From assembly GCA_964372485.1 (NCBI GenBank), contig CAYJQI010000001.1, forward strand, positions 128,001-192,000: a stretch of DNA of 64,000 bases. Direction: 5' to 3'. The stretch is from an uncultured archaeon. Its GTDB lineage: Archaea; Aenigmatarchaeota; Aenigmatarchaeia; CG10238-14; SCSR01. The translations under genes and the position numbers were made by a program. Positions 4,728 to 61,161 of this stretch are shown here, piece by piece; position 1 is the first letter of the stretch; the number at the start of each line of letters is the position of its first letter. The notes beneath the pieces were generated by a model that saw only the letters and a program-made list of their open reading frames with translations, had not been told where the DNA came from and made no database searches.

Positions 4728-5369
4728 TTATTGTTCAGGTACAATAGTAAGTTGTTTCCTAACTGGAAATCTTTCAACAACATCTGCATCTATACCATCG
4801 AAGAAAATCACATGATCTTTATCTGCTACCACTCTCCATACATTATCTTCTAATGTTCCAACCACTGAATAATCATCAGCGCTACGAGGTCCTACTGGAG
4901 ATGGATATTGATTTATTCTATTTACAGGTTGTTTCAAAACTACAGCAGAATGTTTATACAAGTTTTCTTTTACTGCGTCGACTTCATTAGCTGTTAAAAA
5001 TGGTATTGTTATTTCCATTCTTGCTTCTTCACAATCATCTCTATATTTACGTAGAGTATCTTCACGATTTTCTCCTAGTTTAGGCAATCTTTGATCGCAT
5101 TTTGGAATATTCTTAACTGAATAAGTATTGAAGATTATACTTCCTGTAACAGGATCAAGAGTTATAAGATTCAATCCTTTGTCAAGAAGTGCACGATCAA
5201 TTACTAAAGGTCTACCAAAAGTTATAGCTTCTGGAGTTCTTTCATTGCCTACGGCATAAGGTAAATTTTTGATTGTACCTGGAATTTGATATACACCATA
5301 CAGTGCAGCTCCTCCTAAAACAGTACCAAGTATTACATTTCTTACACTTCTCAATGTTGGCATTTGCAT
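4728..5369 (-). CDS. membrane-anchored hypothetical protein, last gene of the pilus-like operon
   Basis: 213 aa with one N-terminal hydrophobic helix (VILGTVLGGAALYGVY). Same strand as the upstream pilin-like genes, 53 nt downstream of them. Confidence 0.5.
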   Translation of the reverse strand: MQMPTLRSVRNVILGTVLGGAALYGVYQIPGTIKNLPYAVGNERTPEAITFGRPLVIDRALLDKGLNLITLDPVTGSIIFNTYSVKNIPKCDQRLPKLGENREDTLRKYRDDCEEARMEITIPFLTANEVDAVKENLYKHSAVVLKQPVNRINQYPSPVGPRSADDYSVVGTLEDNVWRVVADKDHVIFFDGIDADVVERFPVRKQLTIVPEQ

Positions 5370-5422
5370 ACTAATAGGAGGGCAGTAAACTATTTAAGCT
5401 TTTTGTCATTTATAAGTGGTAA

Positions 5423-7114
5423 CTAATTCTTGGAAAGAATGTAAAATTTAAGTTGTAAATTCTTGAGATCATCTTGATTTTCTATGTAATCGTAAATAGG
5501 ATATTTTTCGTTGCTTTTAACATTTACAAGAGTTGCAACATCTGCCTTATACTCATATTGACATTGCTTAGTGTAAAGATTCTCTCGTAAAGTACATTCT
5601 GGTACAGATTTCAAACTGGAGTAACATCTACCTGTATTTTGGAATTCTTCTGTACCTGATGGGCATTGTTTATCTTCGTATTTAACACATACATCATTTC
5701 CTATATCGAAATCGTATCCATTTGGACAGTTTGGAGAAGCTTTGTATATGTTAACATTTCCATTCTCAATTTCACAATTGTGTGAAGAATCTATCTCATA
5801 CACATTAGACGATGGGCATCCTATTTCACGCGGACATCCTTGATCATAGTAACATGAATTAGTTAATGTATCGTATACAGCAGATGAACAGCTAGAACCA
5901 GTAGATGGGCAAATAGGAGATGCTTTGACGACACATCTACCATTTTCTTCACTTCCTTCCAAACATAACTTGTCTGTATATTGTTCACAAAGTTCTGTTG
6001 AACCACTTCCTGTTATTATAGATGTGCAAGGAACACATATGTCATTTTGATTAGCTATTCTACCATTCAATTCGACTGTTCTTTGCGAATCACCTAATTT
6101 AACAGGATGGGATCCAATACATTTTTGTTCTATGCACCCACATTCTAAGCTACTTATTGAACTTTGCACTAAACAGGTATCTTCATTTTCAAATTCTATG
6201 TTGGTTTTGATATTGGATAGGGTAACATCTGTAGATAATTCGACTAATGAATCAACAAAATTAATTGTTTCGATATTGTTTGTTAATTTTGAAATGAATT
6301 CTGTTTTACAAGTTTCAGGAAACATCTCTCTTTTTGTGGGGTAAGTAAATTTGGAATTAGGACTATAACATCCATCGTAACGAATCATTTCACAATTTCC
6401 TGAAAGGTTATCATTATTTAATTTAGTTTTAACATCTACCATTCTCATTTGAGAAGCAGATAAAACTATTTTATCATCTATAGGATCATCAGTTCCTAGG
6501 AAAATTTCTTTTGCATTATCAATTAAACTATTTACAATAACTGATACTGTTTTCTCGATAGATGCATCTGTAGAAATTTCTAGATTAGTATTCTGAAATT
6601 TTATTTTATTATTAGTAACATCAGATGTAAAAACTGCAAAAATTTTATTTTTGTTTATCGTGAGGAATGGAACTGAAAATTCAGGCACTTCTAATTGCGG
6701 ATAAAGGTCTCTCATTGATTTAACATATTCAAAGAATAAAAGTGGTAATTTTTGTTGAAGTTTCAGCTGAATTAGATCTATTTGATTCTCGATACATATT
6801 TCATCATAAACTCTCCAATATGGAAGATCAGTTGGAAAATCTACAAGTTGATCTGAATCACAATTTCCTTCATAGTTTTCTACATAACTTCCTGTTTTTA
6901 GTACATCATAAATTCCATGATAGATTGAAAATAATGCGGCAATTGAAAATGTATTTTTAATGGAATTTATTTGATTCATAGATTCGATTATATTTCTTTC
7001 ATTAACACCTTTGGAAATGGATTGAACCTGATAAGCAAAATTAAATGATATTACACCTATCACAACTACGGTGCTAACAGCTGCAATAACTGCAATGTTT
7101 ATAGCTGCCTTCAT
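5423..7114 (-). CDS. large pilin-like / adhesin-like secreted protein, Cys-rich
   Basis: 563 aa. N-terminus MKAAINIAVIAAVSTVVVIGVISF is class III signal-like. The C-terminal ~330 aa are very Cys-rich (e.g. CPSTGSSCSS..CYYDQGCPREIGCPSS). 4-nt ATGA overlap with the upstream gene. Confidence 0.6.
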   Translation of the reverse strand: MKAAINIAVIAAVSTVVVIGVISFNFAYQVQSISKGVNERNIIESMNQINSIKNTFSIAALFSIYHGIYDVLKTGSYVENYEGNCDSDQLVDFPTDLPYWRVYDEICIENQIDLIQLKLQQKLPLLFFEYVKSMRDLYPQLEVPEFSVPFLTINKNKIFAVFTSDVTNNKIKFQNTNLEISTDASIEKTVSVIVNSLIDNAKEIFLGTDDPIDDKIVLSASQMRMVDVKTKLNNDNLSGNCEMIRYDGCYSPNSKFTYPTKREMFPETCKTEFISKLTNNIETINFVDSLVELSTDVTLSNIKTNIEFENEDTCLVQSSISSLECGCIEQKCIGSHPVKLGDSQRTVELNGRIANQNDICVPCTSIITGSGSTELCEQYTDKLCLEGSEENGRCVVKASPICPSTGSSCSSAVYDTLTNSCYYDQGCPREIGCPSSNVYEIDSSHNCEIENGNVNIYKASPNCPNGYDFDIGNDVCVKYEDKQCPSGTEEFQNTGRCYSSLKSVPECTLRENLYTKQCQYEYKADVATLVNVKSNEKYPIYDYIENQDDLKNLQLKFYILSKN

Positions 7115-7539
7115 CCTGTTTCAATCCTCACAAGTTTTATTTGAGATGATGAATCTGGATTGTAAGGTAATGCGATAGAGGTTGTAAAAATATACTTCTT
7201 TTCACATTGGCCATTTTCTGCTATTGTTTCATATGAATCTGGTAATCCTATTTTCAAAGAATAACAATCGGATATTTTATCTAATTCGATTTTTATAAAA
7301 CTGAGATCTACACTATCATATTCACTCTCTGATATTATTTGAGAAACTGTTTTGCCATTGTGAGTAGAAGATAACAATGAAAATAGTGTATACTGTGCAT
7401 TTTCATATTCGTATGTAAGTGATAGTTCACTATCAAGAACTGTTTTAACTATTGAAGGAGGTAATATTCCAAATGCAACTATTGTTGCCGTTGCTATCAA
7501 ACCGATAACTGGTATATCTGCAATTGTTTGTCCTTTCAT
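7111..7539 (-). CDS. pilin-like protein (class III signal peptide)
   Basis: 142 aa starting MKGQTIADIPVIGLIATATIVAFGIL. 4-nt overlaps on both sides. Confidence 0.55.
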   Translation of the reverse strand: MKGQTIADIPVIGLIATATIVAFGILPPSIVKTVLDSELSLTYEYENAQYTLFSLLSSTHNGKTVSQIISESEYDSVDLSFIKIELDKISDCYSLKIGLPDSYETIAENGQCEKKYIFTTSIALPYNPDSSSQIKLVRIETG

Positions 7540-8084
7540 TCAATCACTGTAACTTTTAACATGGCGATATGAACACTCCCATCTGGGTATCGTATGTTTA
7601 CAGGAAAACTATTTCTATCGAATATTGATGTAAACCTTTTAGAACATGCTTCGTATGACTGATCCGTTTGCACGAGCATACAACTTACAAAATCTTTTAC
7701 TCTCTGACTACTATCATTTTTCAGATAGAAACTGTAAGTAGGTGCGATGATACTTTTGTCTTCAATTGTAACCAAAGCAATTGTATCGGGATAGTGAACA
7801 CCAACTTTGGATGTATCAGAATTCACACCACTAGATATTGAATCTAATTTTGTTTTATCAAAAATTCCAATTTCATGTAAACCATCATTTGAATATAATA
7901 AATTTTCATTTCGCATTAGAGAGTTGGCTAGAATTATTGCTTTATTTTCCAATTCAATAGCGTCGATATGCGGAGTGACTTTTATTGCATTTGCAGGTAT
8001 CATTGTTGGCAAAACGATTCCAGCTAATACACCTGTCATCAATAGAGAAAATAATCCGACAACAGATTCTTGACCTTTTTTCAT
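7536..8084 (-). CDS. pilin-like protein (class III signal peptide)
   Basis: 182 aa starting MKKGQESVVGLFSLLMTGVLAGIVL. Abuts the upstream gene with no spacer. Confidence 0.55.
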   Translation of the reverse strand: MKKGQESVVGLFSLLMTGVLAGIVLPTMIPANAIKVTPHIDAIELENKAIILANSLMRNENLLYSNDGLHEIGIFDKTKLDSISSGVNSDTSKVGVHYPDTIALVTIEDKSIIAPTYSFYLKNDSSQRVKDFVSCMLVQTDQSYEACSKRFTSIFDRNSFPVNIRYPDGSVHIAMLKVTVIE

Positions 8085-8450
8085 TTACTCGACCTTTTCT
8101 ATGGAAGATTTAGATATCAATATGGAACTAACTGCATCAGGGCCAAAGTTAATTAATGAAGTTGTTTTTGATATGGCCCATTCTTCTTCTGTACTGACAT
8201 TTACATAACCACCACTTGCAGAAAGTTTGTAATTGACTTCTTCTGGAAATCTATAACTAATCTTAACATCATCTGAGTTAGCAATACTCATCAAATCTGC
8301 TACTTCTGCAGCCTTTTCTATGACTGAAGTTTTGGAAAGAACTAATTGTATATCTTCTATCATTCCTGGAATTCTAGATACAGTTAAAGCCCCAATAACA
8401 GCAAAACCTATTATTGTAATTGTACTTGTAACTGCACTACCTTTGAGCAT
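8085..8450 (-). CDS. pilin-like protein (class III signal peptide)
   Basis: 121 aa starting MLKGSAVTSTITIIGFAVIGALTV. Confidence 0.55.
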   Translation of the reverse strand: MLKGSAVTSTITIIGFAVIGALTVSRIPGMIEDIQLVLSKTSVIEKAAEVADLMSIANSDDVKISYRFPEEVNYKLSASGGYVNVSTEEEWAISKTTSLINFGPDAVSSILISKSSIEKVE

Positions 8451-8473
8451 AATAATAGTTTGTTTCCGTTAAA

Positions 8474-8758
8474 TTAATTGCGACATTTAGAACTTATGAA
8501 TCCTTGTTCGCAACAAGAATCGATACTGTCGGGTTTGAAAATTTTGTATTCAGTACATCCATCATTCCATTCAGAAGAAGGTCGTGTACCACTATTCAAT
8601 GCACTACAATAACTGATGAGACTTGCTTTACAAGAAGCTTGACTTGTTGTAAACTTTGTTGTATCTATCCAACCCCAGAAAATAGCGATTATGAAAAATA
8701 GAGAAATAGCGATCACACCTATAAGAAAAACGGCATGGACTGCAATTCCCTTTAACAT
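8474..8758 (-). CDS. small Cys-rich pilin-like protein
   Basis: 94 aa starting MLKGIAVHAVFLIGVIAISLFFIIAIF. Six Cys, including the C-x6-Y-C motif (SCKASLISYC) shared with three other small pilins in the operon. Confidence 0.55.
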   Translation of the reverse strand: MLKGIAVHAVFLIGVIAISLFFIIAIFWGWIDTTKFTTSQASCKASLISYCSALNSGTRPSSEWNDGCTEYKIFKPDSIDSCCEQGFISSKCRN

Positions 8759-8781
8759 AGTATAGAATTAAAAATTACAGT

Positions 8782-9021
8782 CTATAAGCTTTTACAGATT
8801 TCATCAGTTACAAGATCACATCCTTCTGGATAGGAAGCTGGTTTCGCTGGTTGTGTACTTGTATATGGTGATCCCCATTGATCACACCACGCTTCTTGAG
8901 CAGCTTTACATTCTGCCTCTGGAATTCTTCCACCGGCAACAAATAACCAATATCCGATCAAACCGATAACAGCAACACCAAGAAGAATTGCTATAATATA
9001 AGGAACTGCTACACCTTTCAT
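8782..9021 (-). CDS. small Cys-rich pilin-like protein (MKGVA.PY family)
   Basis: 79 aa. MKGVAVPYIIAILLGVAVIGLIGYWL is nearly identical to the N-termini of 13135..13428 and 13425..13787. Contains ECKAAQEAWC (C-x6-W-C). Confidence 0.6.
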   Translation of the reverse strand: MKGVAVPYIIAILLGVAVIGLIGYWLFVAGGRIPEAECKAAQEAWCDQWGSPYTSTQPAKPASYPEGCDLVTDEICKSL

Positions 9022-9059
9022 AGAAATAATTTGATTTGGACAGTATTTAAATATTACAA

Positions 9060-10772
9060 TTATTTAACAGTCAAACCATCTATCCATAATTTTTTTGCAC
9101 TAGTTAGAGAAGGTGTGTAATCCACTTCTTCAAAATGTATTTCACTTACGGAATTCCAATCGAATGCTGAGTTTTTACTAAATTCATCTTTATTGATACT
9201 TAATGGGGTATTTTGGAAACTTGTAGTAACACCTGTGATTAATTTCTGTACTTGGTCTCCCCCAAAGTCTCTGAGTATGACTTTGACATCTGTACTTACA
9301 TCAGATTTAATCAAAACTAATAATTCACTTAAGGCAAATGGATTTTGAGACGTGTACACCATATAAACATCATTACTTTCACCTCTGATAGAAAAGTAAC
9401 CCATTATTCTATCACTGGAATCAAGATAAACTGCAGTATTTCTCCCGCTCCATCTATCAATTGATTCAGTTATTGGTTCCGATAATGAACTTCGCATAGG
9501 AAGTGTAACTGTTTTTATCTCTGTTACTTTATATGACCCGGTTGAATCAAATGCAATTCCTTGGAAAGCGTAAGTTGATTCTATTGTATTACATATTATT
9601 GAAAACTTGGTTGAACACGCTACACCTTCGTTTGAACAATCATATTCACCTACTTTTTGACGATCATCAATTGTTTGTTTCGGTATGTCAACATCTTGTA
9701 AGAGACAATAATTCTTATTTCCTTGATGATCCAGGTTCAAATAAAGTGATTTTAGGTCACCATTATCATCTTCTGCTGTAAAGGATATTTCAAATAATTC
9801 ACCTAAATCAACTGATCCTTTAACTTGAAGGTTAGCAGATTTGGGTGGTTGTTGGATTGGAGAAATGTCTGGACCGGTTTTTGTCCATATACCAACATCT
9901 CCGTTAAAATCACAATCCGCTTCTCCAAAATCACTTTCGGCTGAATTTTTACATGTATGCCATACTCCATCTGACCCACATAATACACCATATTTTATTT
10001 TATAACCTCTCAAACCTTTGTTATTTTCCAATGCAGATCTATCTAATAAATTACAAAGGTCACCTTTGGCGCAGGGATCATGAGCTAGTAGAGTTTCGTC
10101 ATCGAAAGGAATACTTAAAACAAAATTGTTTTGAATACAACCAATTCTATCCACAAGATCTAAAAATGTAACTTCCCCATAACAGTTCACATAAGCATTA
10201 GGACCTGCGCAACGTTCACCACCTTGGCAAATAGTTGATACATCCCCTCTCACACATTTATCTCCTTCACCAGCTTTGGTTATTCTTTTGGGAATACAAA
10301 CAGGATTAGGATCTATTAATTTCGATTTTATACATTCGTAAGGTGATGAACATGTATCATCAATCTTAGCACCTGGATAGACATAATAATAACCACCATT
10401 GTCAACAGCTTCATTCGCACTTCCTAAAGATCCTTCATCATTTACGAATAAAACACATCTATCAGTGGGCAATTCTCCTGGAAAGAAAAATGGATTTGTT
10501 CCAAAACCTTCATCGTGTGCAGAGTGATGAACAGCATCTTGTCTTTTTTCTATCAATTCAAATGCCCATATTTCACCGGATGGATCAGCTTCATCACCTT
10601 TCACATGAATTGCGTAACCTTTGTCAGGGATGTCGAATCCTCCAAACATATTCTGTAACCATCCCAACAAATCAACACCAAAAGCTTTTGTAAGAAAAGC
10701 CATTCCAACAATAATAACAGCAACCATCAAGAAAATTTTCATGATCGCTTCTATAGCCATTGCCTTTGACAT
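9060..10772 (-). CDS. large pilin-like / adhesin-like secreted protein
   Basis: 570 aa. N-terminus MSKAMAIEAIMKIFLMVAVIIVGMAFL is class III signal-like. Cys-rich middle region and beta-rich C-terminus. Confidence 0.6.
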   Translation of the reverse strand: MSKAMAIEAIMKIFLMVAVIIVGMAFLTKAFGVDLLGWLQNMFGGFDIPDKGYAIHVKGDEADPSGEIWAFELIEKRQDAVHHSAHDEGFGTNPFFFPGELPTDRCVLFVNDEGSLGSANEAVDNGGYYYVYPGAKIDDTCSSPYECIKSKLIDPNPVCIPKRITKAGEGDKCVRGDVSTICQGGERCAGPNAYVNCYGEVTFLDLVDRIGCIQNNFVLSIPFDDETLLAHDPCAKGDLCNLLDRSALENNKGLRGYKIKYGVLCGSDGVWHTCKNSAESDFGEADCDFNGDVGIWTKTGPDISPIQQPPKSANLQVKGSVDLGELFEISFTAEDDNGDLKSLYLNLDHQGNKNYCLLQDVDIPKQTIDDRQKVGEYDCSNEGVACSTKFSIICNTIESTYAFQGIAFDSTGSYKVTEIKTVTLPMRSSLSEPITESIDRWSGRNTAVYLDSSDRIMGYFSIRGESNDVYMVYTSQNPFALSELLVLIKSDVSTDVKVILRDFGGDQVQKLITGVTTSFQNTPLSINKDEFSKNSAFDWNSVSEIHFEEVDYTPSLTSAKKLWIDGLTVK

Positions 10773-10807
10773 TAATAGTAATTAAATTAGGAAAAATAAA
10801 TAACTGG

Positions 10808-10993
10808 TCAGCATGGACCCGGTATATTACCACCAGGTATAAGTGCACAAACAAAATTCTTCAACCCTTCCAATAATACTCCACTAAAGAACGATGTTAT
10901 CTTTTCGTGAAAGATCCAGATCAGAATTAAAGCCGTTAATGCAAATATGACCGACGTTACAATCCACAATACATCTCCTATAGCTTTTGCCAT
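10808..10993 (-). CDS. small pilin-like membrane protein
   Basis: 61 aa starting MAKAIGDVLWIVTSVIFALTALILIWIF. Its ATG shares one base with the stop codon of the upstream micro-ORF (TAATG). Confidence 0.45.
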   Translation of the reverse strand: MAKAIGDVLWIVTSVIFALTALILIWIFHEKITSFFSGVLLEGLKNFVCALIPGGNIPGPC

Positions 10994-11106
10994 TAGCTAC
11001 CTCCTGTTTTTTTCCATATATTGAATGCAGCAAGTAGAATTAATAATGTGAAAACTAGCATTATCAAAAACCAAAATATATACCCCGTCATGGCCCCCTT
11101 TTTCAT
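10993..11106 (-). CDS. micro-ORF, 37-aa pilin-like membrane peptide (below the ORF-track cutoff)
   Basis: My translation is MKKGAMTGYIFWFLIMLVFTLLILLAAFNIWKKTGGS*. It starts 17 nt after the platform gene, ends in a TAATG overlap with the next gene, and has the same M-K-K-G plus hydrophobic pattern as its neighbours. Confidence 0.35.
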   Translation of the reverse strand: MKKGAMTGYIFWFLIMLVFTLLILLAAFNIWKKTGGS

Positions 11107-11122
11107 ATTTATACATTGAATT

Positions 11123-13102
11123 TTAGACTAATAACTTCTCTAGTGAAATGACAGATGTGAAGAGATAATATGTAAACAAGAGTGTGAATACATACACAAT
11201 ACTACTGTAAAGAAGAGTTTTAGAAATAGTAAGACGTTTTAGAAGACTTTCTTCACCATTCGTGATTGCGCTTACGGTAAATGCGATGATTGCAACTATT
11301 TCCACCAGATAAATCCCAACAAGTAATTGAAAACCGTGGATTGGAATAATATCACTGATATTAACTATTGAAGAAACGACTCCTGTACCAACACCACCCA
11401 CAGGTCCTAAAGCAGATCCTATTGTATTGTAAACTTGATCAAATGCTTCTCCAAGGAAAAGATTAAGTCGTGTCATTACTGCAGTCATTGTTACAACAAC
11501 CCCCGCACTTAACGGAGCAAGAAGTACACTTTGGATATTCATAGTCGATGTAACTTCATCCATCATATTTTTCAGTTCTTCACCTACTTGATGCATATCT
11601 TTCATGTATCGTGAGATAATTACCATGGATTTGGATGCACTTTGCATTCCTTTTTTAGAAGTTTCAACTATAACACGCATGGCAGAGTCTATTATACTCG
11701 ATGGGTAATAGTTAATTGCACCATATTTTTTATCGAAAATCGCATTTTCAAATGTCATTCCAAAAGTTTCAATATTATAGAGTATTTTTTGGAAGAAATT
11801 TGATATTTTTAGATTTTTAATATCGCCTTTCATTCTTCTTAATGCAGTTTCCAATGGGATTCCTCGTAATAACATACTACCGAGTTGGAATAATGCCTCG
11901 GAGAATTCAGTTTCAATTTCTCCAATTTCTTTTCTGAGTTTAATTTTTCTTTTAGTAGAGAAATAAAAATATGTAATAAACCCACCAGCCAATCCAAGCG
12001 TTATTAACATTGATGAGAAGAGTAACTTGAAACTAATTATATTTTCATCACCCACTATACCAAATACACCTAATGCAATCAACGGAAACGAAATCAATAA
12101 GGGAATTATATAAGGTTTCTCATAAAACTTTGTTACATAAAAATCAGGATGTCTACTTAGATCAGGTTGTCGTAAACTGTACGGTCTTTTCTCCAGATAA
12201 CTATTCATGAAAAGGTAAACAATAAGAGGCAGGAAGAAATCATAACCTACAGCAAGGAAGATAGGTTTTATTAAATCTGGTAAAAATCCACTCAAGATTG
12301 GGAAGAAAATTAATCCTATTATCGGCAAAAGAATTCCGAAAGCATTTAGAATAGTAACAGGTTCCTTTAATTGTCTCGAATATTGACGCATTCTATCTTT
12401 AGTTCCATCAAGCATAACAGATACTGCTTCATCCAGAAATCTTTCGCGTTTCTCTTGTGATTCAGCACCAGAATTCTTTATAAGATATATTGCTTCTGAA
12501 AATTCCTTACTATCCCGTTTCCACTTTTCTATAAAAGAATCCAAAGCGTCTTCAATCTTATCATATTTCCTTGTGTAAACTCCCCATAGCAATTCTCGTA
12601 AATCAGTAGACAGTGCACCTTTCAAATTTCTGGATGCAAATCTGACTGCATTTTCCAAATTAGGAGACAAATGCATTGATATACTCATGTAAATCGATGC
12701 AAGGACCATTTCAGATGAAGCGTTTATACGAAATACTGTTGCATAATGATTCGGATAATTTATTAGAAAATAAAATGCAATACCAGTCAATAAAAGAGAA
12801 AAAATTACAGACGAAGGGGTTAACAAGCCTGAACCAGATAGTGAATTAAGAAAGATGAAAATGATTATTGTTGTTAGAAAAACTAATAATGTTCCTATTA
12901 CAGCAAGAGAAAAGGCACCTTTAGGCGTTATCTTGAGATGTGAAAATGTTATAGATTCGGCATATTTTTCTTTCAAACTTTTGAAAGGTTGCAACGGAAA
13001 TATTTTTTCTGAAATATTAGCTAGTTTTTCATATTTAGATAGTTTTTTAGCTAATTTTTCTTCTTTTAGAAATTCTTGATATTCACGCGAAACTACTGGC
13101 AT
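11123..13102 (-). CDS. type IV pilus / archaellum-type platform membrane protein (FlaJ/TadC, T2SS-F family)
   Basis: 659 aa and polytopic. Two cytoplasmic helical T2SSF-like domains (..LSTDLRELLWGVY..; ..FSEALFQLGSMLLRGIPLETALRRM..) are each followed by TM clusters. It lies next to the secretion ATPase. Confidence 0.8.
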   Translation of the reverse strand: MPVVSREYQEFLKEEKLAKKLSKYEKLANISEKIFPLQPFKSLKEKYAESITFSHLKITPKGAFSLAVIGTLLVFLTTIIIFIFLNSLSGSGLLTPSSVIFSLLLTGIAFYFLINYPNHYATVFRINASSEMVLASIYMSISMHLSPNLENAVRFASRNLKGALSTDLRELLWGVYTRKYDKIEDALDSFIEKWKRDSKEFSEAIYLIKNSGAESQEKRERFLDEAVSVMLDGTKDRMRQYSRQLKEPVTILNAFGILLPIIGLIFFPILSGFLPDLIKPIFLAVGYDFFLPLIVYLFMNSYLEKRPYSLRQPDLSRHPDFYVTKFYEKPYIIPLLISFPLIALGVFGIVGDENIISFKLLFSSMLITLGLAGGFITYFYFSTKRKIKLRKEIGEIETEFSEALFQLGSMLLRGIPLETALRRMKGDIKNLKISNFFQKILYNIETFGMTFENAIFDKKYGAINYYPSSIIDSAMRVIVETSKKGMQSASKSMVIISRYMKDMHQVGEELKNMMDEVTSTMNIQSVLLAPLSAGVVVTMTAVMTRLNLFLGEAFDQVYNTIGSALGPVGGVGTGVVSSIVNISDIIPIHGFQLLVGIYLVEIVAIIAFTVSAITNGEESLLKRLTISKTLLYSSIVYVFTLLFTYYLFTSVISLEKLLV

Positions 13103-13134
13103 TAATTAGATTTTGATTTGGAGGGAAATTAAGG

Positions 13135-13428
13135 TTACCTACATTCCGTAGGTGGATTTCCACCCGAGATTGTTTGACAAATAGGACATGCATTGGTTTT
13201 CGGATCAAAACCTGTTCCACATGATCTTCCACAAACTTCTTTCATTGTTGTTTCTTTAGACTCATCTGGAGATGTACACCATGCAAATATCCTTGCGTTA
13301 CATTCGCCTTCTTTAGTAACACAATTTCCTGTTCCCCCACTTGAGATAAGCCAATAACCGATTATAGCTACAACAATGACTCCTATTATTAATGCTATTA
13401 TGTAAGGTATGGCCACTCCTTTCTTCAT
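13135..13428 (-). CDS. small Cys-rich pilin-like protein (MKGVA.PY family)
   Basis: 97 aa starting MKKGVAIPYIIALIIGVIVVAIIGYWL. Nine Cys, including ECNARIFAWC. 4-nt overlap with the upstream paralogue. Confidence 0.6.
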   Translation of the reverse strand: MKKGVAIPYIIALIIGVIVVAIIGYWLISSGGTGNCVTKEGECNARIFAWCTSPDESKETTMKEVCGRSCGTGFDPKTNACPICQTISGGNPPTECR

Positions 13429-13787
13429 CTTTCACATCCGCCCCAAACACCATTCACACATTGTTGTATTCCAGATTCTGTAGGAGAAATTACACAATTA
13501 CGTGTTTGACCATTTGTACATTGTTGAGATCCTGATGGGGTAGTGTAAGAAGGTGTTTCGATGCATTTACCTGTAGAATCTTTTTCTGGTTTAAGCCCTG
13601 GGCATTTAGTTTCATCGAAATTTGATGTAAATCCATTACAATAATTGAAAGCCATTGTATCACATTCTGCTTTATTTCCTACAATAATTGTTTTTCCTCC
13701 TTGGAAAATTAACCAATATCCGATTAAACCAATTATAATTACACCAAGTACAAGCGCAATAACATATGGAATGGCCACGCCTTTCAT
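13425..13787 (-). CDS. small Cys-rich pilin-like protein (MKGVA.PY family)
   Basis: 120 aa starting MKGVAIPYVIALVLGVIIIGLIGYWL. Eight Cys, including ECDTMAFNYC. Confidence 0.6.
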   Translation of the reverse strand: MKGVAIPYVIALVLGVIIIGLIGYWLIFQGGKTIIVGNKAECDTMAFNYCNGFTSNFDETKCPGLKPEKDSTGKCIETPSYTTPSGSQQCTNGQTRNCVISPTESGIQQCVNGVWGGCER

Positions 13788-13806
13788 AGAAATAATTTGA
13801 TTTACT

Positions 13807-16044
13807 TTAACTAATTCTTTTCTTAAACCATTCCAACCATTTGTCGTAAATCATTTTCGAGTCCAAGGCACCAACTTCCTGCCTGACTTGCTCGGAAATT
13901 AGATGGAACATTGCATTCGATTCAACGACATAATCTGCTTCGAGGGATGTATCTCTTCCTGTAGTTGCGGCAAGATTGACCATCGTTTCCTTAATCTTGG
14001 CTCTCAAAAGAATATTATCCCAGACCAAATCCCATTGGCCATGCCATTCCCTGACTCTGCTTGATATTTCATTCAATAATTCAGACTCACCATCTATCAA
14101 AGTAGCGGTAGGTTTTAGTTTGTCTTCTTTTGCAGAATATTCCATGAGATTAATAAATCCTCCTTCATCCATTGGATCGTTCTTCCAATGTTTTCTTACT
14201 TCAGTCAATTCAGTAACTCGCCTAAATCTATGAAGACCATCGGATGATTTCAATTGATTACAAACTGTGATTAGATCCAATGCTTTGAAACTAGTTGGTG
14301 GAACACCTAAATCATGAACCACTCTATCATAAACACCATAAGCAGATTCACCATGAATTGTACCTGCAACGACATTTGCTAATGCACCAATTCTCATCGC
14401 CTCATAGAGTGCAAGTGATTCAACAGATCTTACTTCACCAATAATGAGAACAGAATCTCCCAATCTTAATGCAGTTCGCAAGGCTTCGTCTGCTGGTAAT
14501 TCAGTTTCAACACGAGTAATAACAGAACGTGATTTCATTCTTTCGATATTATATCCTAATTGTCGTAATGAAGTCATTGGAAGTTCGAGTGTATCTTCGA
14601 CAGAAATAATTCTGAACTTCGGCATTATTTCCAACATTAATGATCCGAGAACAGATGTTTTTCCTGATCCACGTCCACCCGCTACAAGTAATGCTCTTCC
14701 ACCATCGATAATAAAACTCATCAGCCCTGCATACAATGGATCGAACATTTTATTTTTAACAAATAATGGAAATGTCCAAGGTTTTTCTCTGTGTCTTCTA
14801 AATGCAAAGGCAAGTCCTTCGGGTGATAATGATTTTGTTATAGCTGCAACTCTTGCTCTTCCCCCAGGGACAAACAATTCAGTATCAAGAACAGGATTTG
14901 ATTCATCTAATGGTCTACCGGAATACAATCTGAATCTCGTTGCCCATGATTCTGCATCTTCGTTTGTAGGAATTAAATTTGTTTCACATTCTTCAAAATC
15001 TCCATGAGTAATGTATATAGGTATTAATCCTATAGGTGCGTTAATGTAGACGTCTTGAATTCTTTCATCTGATAATAATAATTCTAAAATTCCAAATCCT
15101 GCTGTGTAACGTGATAGAATTGTTGCGAGTTCTTCTATCTCAGCTGAAGTTAAATTTACTCCCATGTTTCTTGATATATCACGGATAAGATCTCTTCCAA
15201 GATTTTTGAAAAGTTCTCTAGATTTTTCTGGTTCGACGGATTCTGCTTCTGTTGGACGATGCGCGGCAAGATATCTTCTCGCAGAATCGAGTATTGTATA
15301 TTTTTCATCGCTTAGAACAAATTCTTTTGGAGTTATATGATAAAGATGACGAACTTTTGTTGGAAGTTTGTATATTTCCACATCTGCACCTACCATTGAA
15401 TATTTTTCAACTAATCGTGCTCCTTTCGGAATTGAGAGCATGAATCGGGTGAGCATAAAATTTGGACGGGTTGTTGGTGAAAATAATTCTCTGTATATAT
15501 CTCTACTCCCAAGTTGGTAACTCTGTAGAATCGGCATTGCTTTTTGGATTAATGTACAACCTTCAAGAATATTTTTCATCGGAATTAATGCACTATCAAG
15601 ATATTGACTGAAACAAACTTTCTGTTCTATTGGTGCGGTACCTTCGAGAACTTTATTTGCATTAACCATCTTCACAATTCTCAAATAAGCTCCGATTGGA
15701 TCTTTTCTTAGAACCTCCATTGTTAAAAATTGTAAATCTGCTAATCTTTTTGCGAAAAGTTTTTCACATTGTGTAGGACCGAAGTTTTTGATACTGATTA
15801 TTTTGTCGATATTCAAAATCCTATTGTAAGCATCTGCAATTTCACGTAACATTTTAGTTTGTTCAACATCATATTCATTTTCACGAGCTTCGATTAGAAC
15901 AACTCTGTTAGCTTCCCGAGCTTCAAGTAATTTATCGATAACTACGGCCATTGTTGCATCAGAATCTTCTACACTTGGAGGTATGGCCCAATTCATGCAG
16001 TTTATTCTAAGAGCTCCATCTACCACTTCATACTGTATAGCCAA
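13807..16044 (-). CDS. type II/IV secretion-system ATPase (FlaI / GspE / VirB11 superfamily), first gene of the pilus-like operon
   Basis: 745 aa. Walker A is LVAGGRGSGKTSVLGSL, the Walker B / Asp box region is SVLIIGEVRSVE, and the His box is VAGTIHGES. The N-terminal region is long compared with typical FlaI. Confidence 0.9.
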   Translation of the reverse strand: MAIQYEVVDGALRINCMNWAIPPSVEDSDATMAVVIDKLLEAREANRVVLIEARENEYDVEQTKMLREIADAYNRILNIDKIISIKNFGPTQCEKLFAKRLADLQFLTMEVLRKDPIGAYLRIVKMVNANKVLEGTAPIEQKVCFSQYLDSALIPMKNILEGCTLIQKAMPILQSYQLGSRDIYRELFSPTTRPNFMLTRFMLSIPKGARLVEKYSMVGADVEIYKLPTKVRHLYHITPKEFVLSDEKYTILDSARRYLAAHRPTEAESVEPEKSRELFKNLGRDLIRDISRNMGVNLTSAEIEELATILSRYTAGFGILELLLSDERIQDVYINAPIGLIPIYITHGDFEECETNLIPTNEDAESWATRFRLYSGRPLDESNPVLDTELFVPGGRARVAAITKSLSPEGLAFAFRRHREKPWTFPLFVKNKMFDPLYAGLMSFIIDGGRALLVAGGRGSGKTSVLGSLMLEIMPKFRIISVEDTLELPMTSLRQLGYNIERMKSRSVITRVETELPADEALRTALRLGDSVLIIGEVRSVESLALYEAMRIGALANVVAGTIHGESAYGVYDRVVHDLGVPPTSFKALDLITVCNQLKSSDGLHRFRRVTELTEVRKHWKNDPMDEGGFINLMEYSAKEDKLKPTATLIDGESELLNEISSRVREWHGQWDLVWDNILLRAKIKETMVNLAATTGRDTSLEADYVVESNAMFHLISEQVRQEVGALDSKMIYDKWLEWFKKRIS

Positions 16045-16091: not shown

Positions 16092-16520
16092 ATGGACATC
16101 CCTAACCTTCCGCAATTGCCCTTTGAAAGACACGATGAGGAAGTTTCAAAAATAGTCACAGAGCTTGTTAAAAGAGTGAATGAGGATGTGAGGAGAATAA
16201 GAGTTGTGGAGCAGAGAATTGATAGGTTGGAAAGTTCTGTTGAATCAATTCAAGAAGATACATTGACTCAGTTGAATGATTTGAAAATTGGATTGGAAAA
16301 GATTAACAACAAAATAGTTTCTGTTTCTGAAAAGTTGATGAACATCGAGGGCGAGATTTTAAGATTAAGCAAAGAATTGTCAAAAACCGCAACTAGAAGG
16401 GAATTGAAACAGATAGAAACTTTTATTGATTTGATAAATCCTGTTACAGCGAAATTTGTTACGAAAGAAGAAGTAGAAAAAGCGATTGAAGATAAAGTTC
16501 ATAGATTCAAGAAATCATGA
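16092..16520 (+). CDS. coiled-coil protein, function unknown
   Basis: 142 aa with heptad-rich sequence (RIRVVEQRIDRLESSVESIQEDTLTQLNDLKIGLEKINNKI..). Divergent from the pilus ATPase gene across a 47-nt spacer. Confidence 0.5.
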   Translation: MDIPNLPQLPFERHDEEVSKIVTELVKRVNEDVRRIRVVEQRIDRLESSVESIQEDTLTQLNDLKIGLEKINNKIVSVSEKLMNIEGEILRLSKELSKTATRRELKQIETFIDLINPVTAKFVTKEEVEKAIEDKVHRFKKS

Positions 16521-16922: not shown

Positions 16923-16974
16923 GAGAAAAGCTTAGATTTATGTTCTCTTAAAGGAAAATAACTATAGTGAATTA

Positions 16975-17649
16975 ATGGCATTACCTTTTTTGAGAGGCGG
17001 AAAGGGCAAAGGCGCTATTCCTGTGGAAAGAGTCAAAGATTTGACCGCAAGAGGGTTTTCTGAAGTCGAAATTATAGATGTTTTGAGAAAAGAGGGTTAT
17101 TCTCCAGAAGAAATTGACACCGGATTGACACAATCTTTAAAATTTGCGGCTGCAAACCCAGCAACTCCACCAAATTTAGGATTACCACCAGAGCAACCTA
17201 AGGAAAGGGGTATGTTACCGACTTTGGATGATATTTTACCACGAGAACAACCTCAAACTGTGACTCCACAATTACCAGAAACATCTTTACCGCAAGAATA
17301 TTATCAACAAGACCATCAACAAGCATATCCAACTGAAGATTATGTAGATTATATTGTTCAGGCAAGAATGGGAGACATAAATCAAAAGATTACCGAGTTC
17401 TCAGTCAAGGCTACTGAAATAGAAAAAAGAGTGCAGGAAATAAGTGATAGAATAAGTGAGATTATGAATTTGAGAAATGCTGAACAAACACAGATTTTGA
17501 GTAAGATAGAAACTTTCAAAGAAGGTGTGACTGATATAGAAACTAGAATTAGTGGTTTGGAGAGGGCATTTAAGGAAACATTGCCTGCATTAATAGAATC
17601 TGTGAGGGCATTGACTGATCTTGTGCAAAGATTCAAGAGAGAAGCTTAA
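16975..17649 (+). CDS. coiled-coil protein with a small N-terminal helical domain and a Pro/Gln-rich linker
   Basis: 224 aa. N-terminus VERVKDLTARGFSEVEIIDVLRKEGYSPEEID, a P/Q-rich low-complexity middle, then a C-terminal ~100-aa heptad region similar in style to 16092..16520. Confidence 0.5.
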   Translation: MALPFLRGGKGKGAIPVERVKDLTARGFSEVEIIDVLRKEGYSPEEIDTGLTQSLKFAAANPATPPNLGLPPEQPKERGMLPTLDDILPREQPQTVTPQLPETSLPQEYYQQDHQQAYPTEDYVDYIVQARMGDINQKITEFSVKATEIEKRVQEISDRISEIMNLRNAEQTQILSKIETFKEGVTDIETRISGLERAFKETLPALIESVRALTDLVQRFKREA

Positions 17650-17672
17650 CTTTTCAAAAATAAATTATAATA

Positions 17673-18176
17673 ATGGCATTTGCAATTGAAAATTTTGTTT
17701 CTCAAGAACTAACTCAAATTCTTGTAACTGCGGTAATTCCATTTTTGATAATTTTTGCTGTCCTTTTGTTTGCGTTGAGACAAACTAGAGTTCTTGGAAG
17801 CAATAATTTGATTTATATTATATTATCAGCAGGATTCACGATCATGATTTATGCTGTCCGTCCAGAAACTTTTGCATTTCTTGCATCTTATCTAGTACAA
17901 CTGAGTGTAGCCGGTGCTATTATAGCTCTATTGGGTGTTTTCATAGTCATAGTTTTTTCTTTATTGAGACGTGGACAGAATATTACAGATATGTTCAAAT
18001 CCGAAGCAGACAAATTGAAAGCATTGGAAAAAGAAGAGATCAAATTAAGGAATCGATATCAATCTCGTGGATTTATGTCACCAAATATTGCTGAACGAGA
18101 AGAGATCGCAGGTAAATTAGAAAAAATAGAGCATGAAAAAAAATTCCTACTGGCCAAACTGAGAAGACTTCACTAG
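17673..18176 (+). CDS. membrane protein, paralogue 1 of a 4-gene tandem family (has a C-terminal coiled coil)
   Basis: 167 aa. ..LTQILVTAVIPFLIIFAVLLFALRQTRVLGS.. carries the family signature. The C-terminus is KSEADKLKALEKEEIKLRNRY.. Confidence 0.55.
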   Translation: MAFAIENFVSQELTQILVTAVIPFLIIFAVLLFALRQTRVLGSNNLIYIILSAGFTIMIYAVRPETFAFLASYLVQLSVAGAIIALLGVFIVIVFSLLRRGQNITDMFKSEADKLKALEKEEIKLRNRYQSRGFMSPNIAEREEIAGKLEKIEHEKKFLLAKLRRLH

Positions 18177-18215
18177 CCTTTAAATTTTTACTAAACTAAA
18201 TTAACAAAAGATATA

Positions 18216-18755
18216 ATGGTAAATGTTTTTGAGATTGCGGTTGAAAGGCTTAACGAGTTAGGATTTTACAATTTTCTACTTCCGTTCATATTATTTACTG
18301 CAATCGTATTTGCAGTTCTGAGGAAAACCCACATCTTAGGAGATTCGGTTTCGATCAATGCTGTTGTAGCAGTTTCAGCTGGATTGTTAGTTTTAGGTGC
18401 ACCAGTTCTATTGGGTGGAGATTTAATCCATCCTTTAACAGCATTCATGACGCAGTCACTAGTTGTTATGTTGGTAATTATAGTTGGTTTTATGTTAGCT
18501 AGTTTCTTCTATCCAAATATAACGGAAAAATTAGGGGAAATATTCAAGGCTCCTGGACCAGCGAACTGGCTTATTTGGGGAACTGTTGCACTTGCTGCGG
18601 TATTTGGATTGTTCACATTCATCGGCAAACCTATCGGAACTGCGATAAGTGGCGCTAAAATACCAAGTGAATTAATAAGTATGGTTGTAATAGTATTCAT
18701 AGTTATGATAATTTTACTTGTAGTAACGATAGGTGCAGGGAAGGAGGCTAAGTAA
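18216..18755 (+). CDS. membrane protein, paralogue 2 of the tandem family
   Basis: 179 aa starting MVNVFEIAVERLNELGFYNFLLPFILFTAIVFAVLRKTHILGD, followed by about 4 more TM helices. Confidence 0.6.
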   Translation: MVNVFEIAVERLNELGFYNFLLPFILFTAIVFAVLRKTHILGDSVSINAVVAVSAGLLVLGAPVLLGGDLIHPLTAFMTQSLVVMLVIIVGFMLASFFYPNITEKLGEIFKAPGPANWLIWGTVALAAVFGLFTFIGKPIGTAISGAKIPSELISMVVIVFIVMIILLVVTIGAGKEAK

Positions 18756-19300
18756 TGGTGTCGTTTTTTGAAAATGCAATTTTGAAACTTCAGGAGTTGG
18801 GATTTTTCCAATTCTTCTTACCATTCCTTTTAACAGCTGCTATAGTTTATGGTGGATTGAGAAGAGCGCAGTTGTTTGGAGATCCTGATAAGAATATCGC
18901 TGTGAATGGAATTGTTGCTTTTGTTATTAGTTTGTTTGTATGGGCAGCACCAATAATTCTTGGAGTGGATATAGAATCAAGATTGTCGGCATTTTTCATC
19001 CAAGGGATTAGTGTATCGTTGATAGTTTTATTTGGACTAATAATATCGAGTATGTTTTTCCCACCAGATTTGGCAAAGAACTTGAGTGATAGAGTCAAGA
19101 CACCGATTTTCTGGGGAGGGATTGTTATTGTGGCATTGATTATTTTCATTGTTATTCTGATATCGAGTGGGTTAGCATCTGTTTTGTTTCCACGAGGGGT
19201 AGGAGTTAGTATATCATCGGCAACATGGGGAACAATTGCAGCCATGGCAGCTCTTGTTATAAGTTTATTTATAGTAGTAAGAGCCGGAGGAGGCAAATAA
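18755..19300 (+). CDS. membrane protein, paralogue 3 of the tandem family
   Basis: 181 aa starting MVSFFENAILKLQELGFFQFFLPFLLTAAIVYGGLRRAQLFGD. TAATG overlap with paralogue 2. Confidence 0.6.
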   Translation: MVSFFENAILKLQELGFFQFFLPFLLTAAIVYGGLRRAQLFGDPDKNIAVNGIVAFVISLFVWAAPIILGVDIESRLSAFFIQGISVSLIVLFGLIISSMFFPPDLAKNLSDRVKTPIFWGGIVIVALIIFIVILISSGLASVLFPRGVGVSISSATWGTIAAMAALVISLFIVVRAGGGK

Positions 19301-19333
19301 TGTTTAAATCTTTAGAAAAGAAAATAGGGTTAG

Positions 19334-19981
19334 TTGAAAATGAAAAGTGAAATTACTTCTAAGATTGGATTGAGTTTTATTCTCAGTATTTTGATGTTTT
19401 CTACGATAACGTTTGCTCAAGGATTTGCAAACATTGTTGAGACATTGAAGGAAGTTGGTGTTTTCGAGTTCTATCTTCCTTTCTTATTGGTTTTTGCAGT
19501 TTTGTACGCTTTGTTGTTGAAAGCGGGTATTTTCGGTACACAAAAGCAGCTAGTCACTATTATCGCATTAGCTGCATCTGCATTCATAATGGTTTATGTA
19601 CCTGTAGGAATAACATTTGGACAGTTCTTAACTAATTTTGTAGGAAATGCTGTAACTGCAATATTGACTGTTCTTTTGTTTTTGATATTTATTGGTATGC
19701 TTCAAAGTGGTAAAATATTACCTGAATCTATGGCAGATGTTTTCAAAGGTAGTGTTCTATGGATAGTGCTTATTTTTATTTTATTGATCGCGTTTGGTGT
19801 GTTCATTTCAAGTGGAGGAACTTCAATATTCCCCGGTCTTAAGATATTTCCAACTCAATCATTTGGAGGCGTTGGGGGACTTGAACCATCTACAATTGCT
19901 ATAATTGTTTTGATTATTGGAACGGCTATTATCATTTTCCTATTTGCTAAAGGGGACAAAGCCGCAGCAGCAAAAACTTAG
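19334..19981 (+). CDS. membrane protein, paralogue 4 of the tandem family (extra signal-peptide-like N-terminus)
   Basis: 215 aa. ..FANIVETLKEVGVFEFYLPFLLVFAVLYALLLKAGIFG.. is preceded by KIGLSFILSILMFSTITFAQG. The track start is TTG at 19334; the ATG at 19340 is an equally plausible start. Confidence 0.6.
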   Translation: MKMKSEITSKIGLSFILSILMFSTITFAQGFANIVETLKEVGVFEFYLPFLLVFAVLYALLLKAGIFGTQKQLVTIIALAASAFIMVYVPVGITFGQFLTNFVGNAVTAILTVLLFLIFIGMLQSGKILPESMADVFKGSVLWIVLIFILLIAFGVFISSGGTSIFPGLKIFPTQSFGGVGGLEPSTIAIIVLIIGTAIIIFLFAKGDKAAAAKT

Positions 19982-48807: not shown

Positions 48808-48819
48808 TATTCTCTACCT

Positions 48820-61154: not shown

Positions 61155-61161
61155 TGGTGAC

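Follow-up and report, generated by a model that had tools for sequence, protein, structure and literature searches.

A probable type IV filament machine with rapidly diverging class III proteins in the Aenigmatarchaeota

What kind of machine is encoded where a single secretion ATPase and a candidate platform protein lead a long run of genes for proteins with class III-like N-termini? We take up this question for a locus in a 64,000-nucleotide stretch of an uncultured archaeon (contig CAYJQI010000001.1, positions 128,001 to 192,000), hereafter the window. The locus is a minus-strand run of 14 open reading frames (ORFs) extending from 16044 to 4728, and comprises a T2SSE-family ATPase, a FlaJ/TadC-like protein with about nine transmembrane (TM) helices, 11 class-III-like ORFs and one misfit (Table 1). 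A preliminary description of this DNA had read the run as a type IV pilus-like operon without archaellum-specific genes. Our own assessment is that the locus is likely to encode a type IV filament (TFF) machine of a non-archaellar kind, typical of Aenigmatarchaeota, which carries modular minor pilins and serves contact with cells or surfaces; an attachment role is a plausible inference.

The argument begins with the ATPase, which is of the hexameric secretion type and matches T2SSE (PF00437) with 59 bits against a cut-off of 24.9. Its Walker A sequence, GGRGSGKTS, occupies residues 456-464, the nucleotide-binding motifs as a whole span residues 456-565, and the Asp box, Walker B motif and His box are likewise intact. 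The named subfamilies fit it poorly, with NCBIfam scores under the cut-off in every case: 124 of 373 bits for TadA (TIGR03819), 114.9 of 550 for FlaI (NF058587) and 48 of 1000 for BasE (NF053672). Its nearest solved structures are, in rank order, afGspE (1e-27), CpaF (8e-20) and FlaI (9e-16), the class of the enzyme being judged here by model cut-offs and this PDB ranking. By both measures it is distinct from a bona fide archaellum FlaI. In five relatives the ATPase is lengthened to 1263-1267 amino acids (aa) by an intein that includes a homing endonuclease (matches to PF14528 and PF14890); the gene in the window is intein-free.

These scores bear directly on the idea that the locus encodes an archaellum, that is, a swimming organelle, as earlier genome surveys labelled such genes. 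FlaG, FlaI, FlaJ and adjacent homologues have been reported in most Aenigmarchaeota metagenome-assembled genomes (Li et al. 2021, PMC8407114), JGI labels some homologues 'flagellar protein FlaI', and cc224, a coiled-coil protein encoded on the opposite strand, matches FlaC_arch weakly (E 0.009, seen in 10 of 30 orthologues). The FlaC_arch matches, however, sit among many equally weak coiled-coil matches, the ATPase falls far short of the FlaI equivalog and lies nearer to afGspE and CpaF than to FlaI, and Pfam scans of 47 window proteins, every multi-TM ORF included, detected no archaellin, FlaH, FlaF or FlaG domain. We give the archaellum next to no credence. The non-archaellar assignment of the preliminary description was thus upheld, as was its statement that the window has no flagellin-domain protein, no archaellum accessory gene and no A24 prepilin peptidase, the last of which was also absent from the Pfam scans.

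For comparison across genomes, a GTDB scan with one genome per species returned 277 relatives of the ATPase, the best 80 of which are 55-88% identical to it and almost all labelled Aenigmatarchaeota. Two sets of related loci were used, 86 genome loci around ATPase homologues (1.4 Mb) and 80 metagenome loci (0.56 Mb). The window has a GC content of ~34%, and the nearest named relatives of its ATPase are type II/IV secretion system ATPase subunits of Candidatus Aenigmatarchaeota. By these sequence measures the genome is one of Candidatus Aenigmatarchaeota (DPANN), and the locus is typical for the phylum. A homologue of the platform candidate lies downstream of the ATPase in 68 of the 86 genome loci, and 4 of 7 platform orthologues match T2SSF (best E 1.3e-5), the only family to recur among them.

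The second line of evidence lies in the N-termini of the genes that follow the motor. A class III design, M-x(0-2)-K-[GA] leading into a hydrophobic helix of ~20 residues after a leader of 2-3 residues, is present in 11 of the 12 non-motor genes of the run. The rest of the window has it in 2 of 73 likely genes (Fisher p = 4e-11) and in 1 of 367 spurious ORFs. The preliminary description had counted 12 such ORFs; its own list of N-termini also comes to 11, and the size range of 37-570 aa that it gave for them is correct. A FlaFind-like rule, our own approximation and not the original FlaFind ([KR][GA] within 14 residues, followed by 19 residues whose mean Kyte-Doolittle hydropathy is at least 1.5), flags 10 of the operon ORFs, and the 37-aa ORF fits by eye. 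A wider test drew on 83 related loci, in which ORFs were selected first on a hydrophobic N-terminus and the motif was scored only afterwards. Of the 373 ORFs so selected that lie downstream of the ATPase, 233 show [KR][GA] immediately before the helix, compared with 31 of 292 elsewhere (p = 3e-45). Position -2 of the 233 is K in 228 and R in 5, position -1 is G in 199 and A in 34, and the modal leader has 3-4 residues including Met. A site for a class III signal peptidase calls for just such a pattern and a plain anchor does not, so that the result favours class III signals over ordinary anchors.

The 11 proteins fall into several kinds. The PY family comprises p120, p97 and p79; the paralogues of p120 are 46-53% identical to it, and the family consensus, M-K-(K)-G/VA(I/V)PY(I/V)IAL..G...IGL.GYW (a slash here and in Table 1 follows the G or A of the motif), leads into a small tail, variable and Cys-rich, in which one pair of cysteines is invariant. 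Both p37 and p61 are essentially one helix, a layout they share with the major pilins of the Flp and Epd types, and tiny class-III ORFs occupy the same place after tadC in relatives as p37 does here. The large protein p570 has orthologues that are 22-34% identical and 319-826 aa long. For structure prediction with AlphaFold2 we chose p142, which has 13 homologues; the search with p120 gave 4 proteins, too few for a useful alignment. The p142 model (13 sequences, mean predicted local distance difference test score, pLDDT, 73.8) consists of a helix over residues 8-57, kinked at P27, followed by a four-stranded sheet, and the family has two conserved cysteines, C112 invariant and C92 nearly so. 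As modelled, this helix-plus-sheet arrangement resembles the general layout of pilins.

Several results weigh against a filament machine, and they have to be set beside this evidence. At E limits of 0.1-10, none of the 11 class-III proteins matches any of the families that Pfam and NCBIfam curate for pilins and archaellins, such as Pilin_N, Arch_flagellin and the archaeal flagellin N-terminal-like domain. The PY family, searched as p120, has no Pfam or NCBIfam match, and its PDB profile search yielded generic TM helices only; p563 and p570 have no Pfam or PDB match and no recognisable adhesin or enzyme domain; and Foldseek of the p142 model against the PDB gave nothing below E 0.1, and its 50 best matches include no pilin. 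The platform candidate scores 17.7 bits against T2SSF, under the cut-off of 25.2. Thus, of the two profile searches that had been proposed for the core genes, the one for T2SSE succeeded and the one for T2SSF stayed below threshold, and the ATPase and FlaJ/TadC-type pair reported for this minus-strand run is confirmed with that reservation. Sequence and profile searches of the PDB found no match for the platform protein, and aligning its two halves with hhalign revealed no significant internal repeat (probability 1%), the sole aligned stretch being PNLENAV...LKG against IPLETAL...IKN. Some distant Aenigmatarchaeota, with 55-58% ATPase identity, split the arrangement: six loci, one of them on the closed chromosome CP070801.1, have the ATPase and the coiled-coil pair described below but lack TadC and pilins within 10 kb, and seven others have ATPase and TadC without that pair. 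The split could reflect two paralogous systems or rearrangement. Finally, no A24 peptidase was found in the window, in the 86 genome loci or in the 80 metagenome loci, and phmmer against the six-frame window gave nothing better than E 0.1; the query, Methanococcus maripaludis FlaK (checked against PDB 3S0X, 100% over 160 aa), was one distant seed of limited sensitivity.

Part of this list could be read to mean that the N-termini are uncleaved signal anchors or Sec signals, and that the supposed pilins are membrane-anchored surface proteins lying beside an ATPase-TadC pair with some other role. The missing peptidase, the lack of a family or structural match to pilins and the extremely short leaders (2-3 residues) all speak for it. 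On the other hand, an anchor would have no need of the K at -2 and G or A at -1 that abut the helix so much more often downstream of the ATPase than elsewhere, and the class-III proteins cluster tightly with both TFF core genes across the phylum. Furthermore, prepilin peptidase genes are often unlinked to pilin loci (PMC4858521). We regard plain anchors as very unlikely.

A filament machine is also favoured by how the locus varies among relatives. Five long contigs whose ATPases are 67-88% identical to that of the window share one gene order: ATPase, 0-2 small pilin-like genes, tadC, 1-4 tiny class-III ORFs, a large class-III protein, several proteins of ~90-120 aa, proteins of ~120-220 aa and finally a second large protein. 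The repertoire that the preliminary description had called unusually large and diverse is therefore the norm for this locus across Aenigmatarchaeota. Identity to the close relative L006 is 88% for the ATPase and 74% for TadC, and it drops to 32-58% for the small and 29-34% for the large class-III proteins, the latter also differing in length by hundreds of residues. The motor thus evolves slowly and the class-III subunits fast. Synteny among close relatives was not itself counted as functional evidence, because housekeeping genes (TP_methylase, TYW2, M50 peptidase, ribosomal proteins) keep their order there too; functional linkage was judged instead on loci at 55-60% ATPase identity and on a reciprocal test in metagenomes.

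Judged in this way, the system extends beyond the run itself. The coordinates given earlier omitted the ATPase's most conserved partners, two coiled-coil proteins and a family of five-TM proteins, which occupy 16092-19981 on the opposite strand. The ATPase is adjoined by cc142 in 74 and by cc224 in 72 of the 86 genome loci, at near-fixed distances and down to 55% ATPase identity. When metagenome contigs were searched in reverse from the cc224 alignment, cc142 was adjacent in 65 of 67 loci and the ATPase in 52 of the 53 with enough flanking DNA. Matches of cc142 and cc224 to known families are of the generic coiled-coil kind, apart from the FlaC_arch match mentioned above and a similarly weak one of cc224 to RecX_HTH1; a PDB search with cc224 gave noise or coiled coils only. 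Its coiled coil ends in a highly conserved motif, LEKAFKETLPALIESVRAL. The five-TM family, represented in the window by four paralogues of 167-215 aa with 3-6 predicted TM helices and the consensus GFFxFLLPFLLxxAIxYGLLxKxxIFG, lies near the ATPase in 54 of the 86 loci, in 1-5 copies (mostly 2-4). No Pfam or NCBIfam family was matched consistently by these paralogues. We also considered them as a cryptic peptidase and rejected the idea, as they have no conserved Asp pair, no GxGD motif and no family match.

The ATPase itself has an additional part to which such partners might bind. Its alignment with afGspE (PDB 2OAP, 511 aa) covers query residues 226-642, with query residue 226 corresponding to afGspE residue 47. 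The protein is ~230 residues longer than afGspE or FlaI, and its first ~180-225 residues have no afGspE counterpart. An AlphaFold2 model of residues 1-290, built on a 16-sequence alignment, reached a mean pLDDT of 78.8 (~80-97 across residues 1-190) and places a small alpha/beta domain (1-58) before a five-helix bundle (60-175); Foldseek of this N-terminal domain against the PDB returned nothing below E 0.5. An exhaustive HMMER search of 1.84 billion representative proteins found 216 that carry the domain, always at the N-terminus, in full-length proteins of ~760-800 aa, or longer where inteins are present. On these matches the domain is lineage-specific. The N-terminal domains of archaeal TFF ATPases are reported to vary by subsystem and have been proposed to bind subsystem-specific accessory proteins (bioRxiv 10.64898/2026.04.22.720090), which would make cc142 and cc224 the obvious candidates here.

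What the filament might carry is suggested by the large class-III proteins of relatives. The p142 orthologues of L001 and L018 are fused to GH5 (52.6 and 31.4 bits, cut-off 23.5), the p121 orthologue of L018 is extended by a lysozyme-like SLT_3 domain (38.5 bits, cut-off 27), and the p570 orthologues of L001 and L003 carry a beta/gamma-crystallin or I36 domain, that of L001 lying beyond the principal stretch of alignment. Among 66 large class-III proteins surveyed in related loci, we found Laminin_G_3, Cellulase (GH5), SLT and Crystallin/I36 modules in two proteins each, and SLT_3, Peptidase_M23, Peptidase_C39_2, a GH2 TIM barrel and Invasin_D3 in one each; most of the 66 have no recognisable domain. 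Motif inspection added SLT and M23 signatures in a 373-aa class-III protein of one locus, and an SLT signature in a 928-aa protein at the p563 position of another. Peptidoglycan hydrolases of archaea were surveyed in 2025 with regard to Sec and Tat signals, in a paper that does not mention pili or pilins.

So many large modular class-III proteins in one locus family raise the question of whether a filament is built at all. The proteins might instead form a pseudopilus or bindosome-like scaffold, a short stub or a mere anchoring, on which hydrolases, lectins and other modules are displayed. According to a 2026 preprint, it is widespread among archaeal TFF machines to be 'functionalised' by binding proteins of class III, and no clear single major pilin can be named. 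Nonetheless, the BasE model is far from matched, none of the 66 large class-III proteins has a substrate-binding-protein domain, no ABC transporter occurs among the window proteins scanned, and the small, conserved, helix-dominated subunits (the PY family, p37 and p61) resemble filament building blocks. We consider a scaffold unlikely, and it overlaps with a filament machine rather than excluding it. The same modules bear on a competence-type pilus that would take up DNA and so feed nucleotides to a cell that cannot produce its own. De novo synthesis of nucleotides is missing in Aenigmarchaeota (PMC8407114). Com-type pili likewise work with a single ATPase, a single platform protein and several minor pilins. 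The modules found, however, target glycans, murein or adhesion, and no DNA-binding or DNA-channel domain of the ComEA/ComEC kind was seen in the 47 window proteins or the 66 class-III proteins; DNA uptake seems to us a scarcely credible function.

The class-III proteins are further set apart by their composition. Those of the window contain 3 N-x-S/T sequons where 16.9 are expected from composition (Poisson p = 4e-5), with 0 against 3.9 in p570 and 1 against 7.5 in p563, whereas all other window proteins together have 125 against 113.6 expected. The window does encode an AglB/STT3 protein (30859-32991). Across the 83 loci, the class-III proteins have 144 sequons against 324 expected and the rest 1566 against 1710, and the cysteine content is 3.46% in the class-III proteins and 1.17% in the others. 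Relative to other proteins of the same loci, sequons are depleted ~2.3-fold and cysteines enriched ~3-fold. A further class-III-like N-terminus, MKA/VVKVSLIALAV..., belongs to a 660-aa protein outside the operon (59172-61154, plus strand) that has no Pfam or NCBIfam match. It is enriched in sequons (30 against 14.8 expected), the opposite of the operon proteins, and could be an S-layer protein or other glycoprotein.

We can now sketch how a filament machine of this type might work. By analogy with type IV pili, the precursors would enter the membrane and be cut after the G or A by a prepilin peptidase whose gene lies elsewhere. The ATPase, acting through the platform protein, would then pull mature subunits out of the membrane and stack their N-terminal helices into a surface filament. 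The major subunit, and hence the shaft, might be supplied by the PY proteins or by the helix-only p37 and p61, p61 being the Flp/Epd-like alternative. A priming or tip complex could be formed by the coupled block p121-p182-p142-p563 together with p570, bearing the fast-evolving functional modules; it is at these positions that relatives have GH5, SLT, M23, lectin-like or crystallin-like domains. In the cytoplasm, cc142 and cc224 would act as an accessory module, probably docked on the ATPase's N-terminal domain, as FlaX/FlaCDE serve the archaellum motor. The likely use of such a filament would be contact with another cell or a surface. Ultrasmall cells linked to hosts by pili-like appendages have been imaged in a groundwater system that yielded several of the related genomes, the cells not being identified taxonomically (PMC7906910).

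A bolder version of this model is that the locus encodes a phylum-wide device for breaching host envelopes, with interchangeable cartridges of wall-degrading enzymes (SLT, M23, GH5) or lectins at the tip or among the minor pilins, a coiled-coil motor module and subunits free of N-glycans and stabilised by disulfides. In this version the two coiled-coil proteins would form a hitherto undescribed cytoplasmic module on the ATPase N-terminal domain, possibly together with the new five-TM family, and subunits would perhaps be processed without a canonical A24 peptidase. The idea of enzyme cartridges rests on relatives and not on the window, because p563 and p570 of the window have no recognisable domain, and we hold the bolder version only tentatively, as rather doubtful. 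If it were true, the nature of the cartridges would reveal the kind of host, and murein hydrolases would point to bacterial hosts.

How does the locus compare with systems already described? The type IV pilus loci of DPANN that Makarova, Wolf and Koonin described in 2019 (Fig. 2A of PMC6393860), whose pilins count as 'dark matter', are of the same general kind: an ATPase and TadC, then unannotated signal-peptide proteins read as diverse pilins, in the same host group. That account is generic, and does not include the ATPase N-terminal domain, the coiled-coil pair, the five-TM paralogues, enzyme-bearing class-III proteins or sequon depletion. The architecture is closest to the Epd type or 'system 1' (clade 1) of Methanococcus maripaludis, yet without that type's defining features. 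The Epd-type system has at least five minor pilins and two large proteins (PMC4858521), and shares with the present locus small (~70 aa) candidate major pilins, at least five candidate minor pilins and two large adhesin-like class-III proteins. It differs in having two platform genes and the EppA peptidase in the locus (PMC4858521; bioRxiv 10.64898/2026.04.22.720090), where the window has one 659-aa platform gene and no peptidase, and Epd pilins have no detectable similarity to the class-III proteins of the window. The best named NCBIfam score of the ATPase, TadA, belongs to a bacterial lineage thought to derive from Epd-like systems.

Like the bacterial Tad/Flp pilus, the locus has a single ATPase, no separate retraction ATPase and tiny helix-dominated candidate subunits, and CpaF is the second-best solved homologue of its motor; unlike it, the window has no TadB/TadC pair, TadZ, secretin or Flp motif, and its ATPase has the extra N-terminal domain of ~190 residues. 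The modular pilins PilB and PilC of Streptococcus sanguinis (PMC8179133, PMC9934059) likewise join a pilin N-terminus to a functional C-terminal module, the modules of our relatives being GH5, SLT, M23 and ConA-like lectins. This likeness is one of function only: the sequences are unrelated, the window itself has none of the fusions found in relatives, and the fused proteins are putative filament components. The Sulfolobus bindosome (BasEF with class-III sugar-binding proteins) is similar in that a TFF core machine serves class-III proteins with a non-filament function, and differs in its motor family, in the substrate-binding proteins and ABC transporters that we did not find here, and in having scattered class-III genes where those of the window lie in the core locus. 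The closest solved structure, afGspE of Archaeoglobus fulgidus, is without the N-terminal extension. To our knowledge, the biological system to which afGspE belongs is itself uncharacterised. The general kind of system is thus already known, both as DPANN dark-matter-pilin loci and within archaeal TFF diversity, and its lineage-specific features appear to be new. In the literature searched, we found no description of the ATPase N-terminal domain, the coiled-coil triad, the five-TM family, enzyme-bearing class-III proteins or sequon depletion.

The layout of the run qualifies the notion of a single operon. From the ATPase onwards, the gaps between genes are 19, -4, 32, 16, -1, 35, 38, 23, 23, 0, -4, -4 and 53 nucleotides (nt). 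The overlaps and zero spacers from which a single translationally coupled unit had been argued hold for 5 of the 13 junctions, and the remaining 8 are spaced by 16-53 nt. Coupling is thus supported within the blocks p120-p97, p37-p61 and p121-p182-p142-p563, and does not extend to the other genes. The number of 14 also needs a qualification: 14 ORFs do lie on the same strand, but the last of them, x213, is without the K-[GA] motif and has no homologue in the 86 related loci and no Pfam or NCBIfam match, and is probably outside the conserved system. Upstream of the ATGs at 13787, 13102 and 9021 (p120, tadC and p79), at a distance of 5-20 nt, lies the motif AAATCAAA(T/A)T(A/C)T, which recurs in weaker form at 8450. 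It occupies the Shine-Dalgarno position, where sites of the GGAGG or GGTGA type precede other genes of the run, and could serve as an internal promoter or as a signal for processing or translation.

Table 1. Coordinates of the motor genes, the class-III-like ORFs and the plus-strand partners in the window
Feature	Position	Strand	Basis or remark
ATPase, T2SSE/VirB11 family, 745 aa	13807..16044	-	TTG start, AGGTGA before it; PF00437
ATPase N-terminal extension, residues 1 to ~190	15475..16044	-	AlphaFold2 model; no Pfam match
ATPase Walker A	14653..14679	-	
ATPase Asp box	14581..14613	-	
ATPase Walker B	14428..14457	-	
ATPase His box	14350..14367	-	
p120, small Cys-rich class-III protein, PY family, MKG/VAIPYVIALVLGVIIIGLIGYW..., candidate major pilin	13425..13787	-	motif; paralogues; orthologues in relatives
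p97, PY paralogue, MKKG/VAIPYIIAL...	13135..13428	-	start overlaps p120 stop by 4 nt (ATGA)
FlaJ/TadC-like polytopic platform candidate, 659 aa, ~9 TM	11123..13102	-	sub-threshold T2SSF; orthologue matches
p37, 37-aa helix-only class-III micro-protein, MKKG/AMTGYIFWFLIMLVF...	10993..11106	-	homologues in 8 loci
p61, 61-aa helix-only class-III protein, MAKA/IGDVLWIVTSV...	10808..10993	-	start overlaps p37 stop by 1 nt (TAATG)
p570, large class-III protein, 18 Cys, MSKA/MAIEAIMKIFLMV..., candidate modular pilin/adhesin	9060..10772	-	motif; diverged orthologues
p79, third PY paralogue, MKG/VAVPYIIAIL...	8782..9021	-	motif; paralogy
p94, small class-III protein, 6 Cys, MLKG/IAVHAVFLIG...	8474..8758	-	homologues in 22 loci
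p121, class-III protein, MLKG/SAVTSTITIIG..., opens the tightly coupled candidate minor-pilin block	8085..8450	-	motif; orthologues
p182, class-III protein, MKKG/QESVVGLFSLL...	7536..8084	-	zero spacer after p121
p142, class-III protein, MKG/QTIADIPVIGL...	7111..7539	-	4-nt overlap with p182; AlphaFold2 model
p563, large class-III protein, 26 Cys, MKA/AINIAVIAAVS..., candidate tip adhesin/effector	5423..7114	-	4-nt overlap with p142
x213, N-terminal anchor, MQMPTLRSVRNVILG... start, without K-[GA] motif	4728..5369	-	53-nt gap after p563
cc142, cytoplasmic coiled-coil protein	16092..16520	+	divergent from ATPase over a 47-nt intergenic region
cc224, cytoplasmic; N-terminal small helical domain, Pro/Gln-rich linker, C-terminal coiled coil	16975..17649	+	alignment
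m167, small polytopic membrane protein	17673..18176	+	paralogy (m167, m179, m181, m215)
m179, small polytopic membrane protein	18216..18755	+	paralogy
m181, small polytopic membrane protein	18755..19300	+	paralogy
m215, small polytopic membrane protein	19334..19981	+	paralogy

Other genes of the window lie close to the locus or touch on the cell surface. Between cc142 and cc224, on the minus strand, 16515-16922 encodes a secreted cupredoxin-like protein (PF13473, 29.6 bits); this gap is a variable insertion spot, which in L001 (8813-9477) holds a PIN/MazE toxin-antitoxin pair. Convergent with the end of the operon, 2124-4718 (plus strand) encodes an 864-aa protein with a Cys-containing N-terminus (MPQCRLCGRDY...), at least four TM helices, a Cys-rich C-terminal region and a CarboxypepD_reg-like domain at 29.9 bits, just under the cut-off of 32.3. 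Its homologue in L004 lies at the corresponding place (25% identity, E 1e-21), where L006 has a CarboxypepD_reg-domain gene on the opposite strand. From ~30.8 to 58.9 kb extends a large protein-glycosylation or polysaccharide cluster with several methyltransferases, which includes, besides the AglB/STT3 gene, a PMT_2/STT3-like gene (44693-46294), a GT4 gene (46300-47316) and two Wzx-type flippases (47266-50343). An ORF of more than 960 aa with SpvB, TcdB_toxin_midN, FG-GAP and RHS-repeat domains runs on the plus strand from 61111 to 64000 and past the end of the window; its domains suggest a polymorphic-toxin surface protein of the Tc/Rhs type, here in a DPANN genome. Scans of the window for tRNA and Rfam entries gave no matches.

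Little is known of the means by which DPANN archaea locate, hold on to and exploit their hosts, and for the Aenigmatarchaeota, which are tiny symbionts, we know of no named host or cultured representative. The locus is present in essentially every sampled Aenigmatarchaeota lineage, with its ATPase in 277 species representatives. A conserved motor combined with rapidly diverging surface subunits is the signature expected of a host-interaction organelle, and the fast-evolving surface subunits are, on their sequences, candidates for host contact. Our analysis corrects the earlier annotation of such genes as an archaellum subset, and widens the real extent of the system by six plus-strand genes. 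It also supplies testable candidates for the filament subunit, for the role of the coiled-coil pair and, through the murein and glycan hydrolase fusions in relatives, for the type of host. If the hydrolase-bearing pilins are true filament components, the idea of 'modular pilins' would extend to archaeal symbionts.

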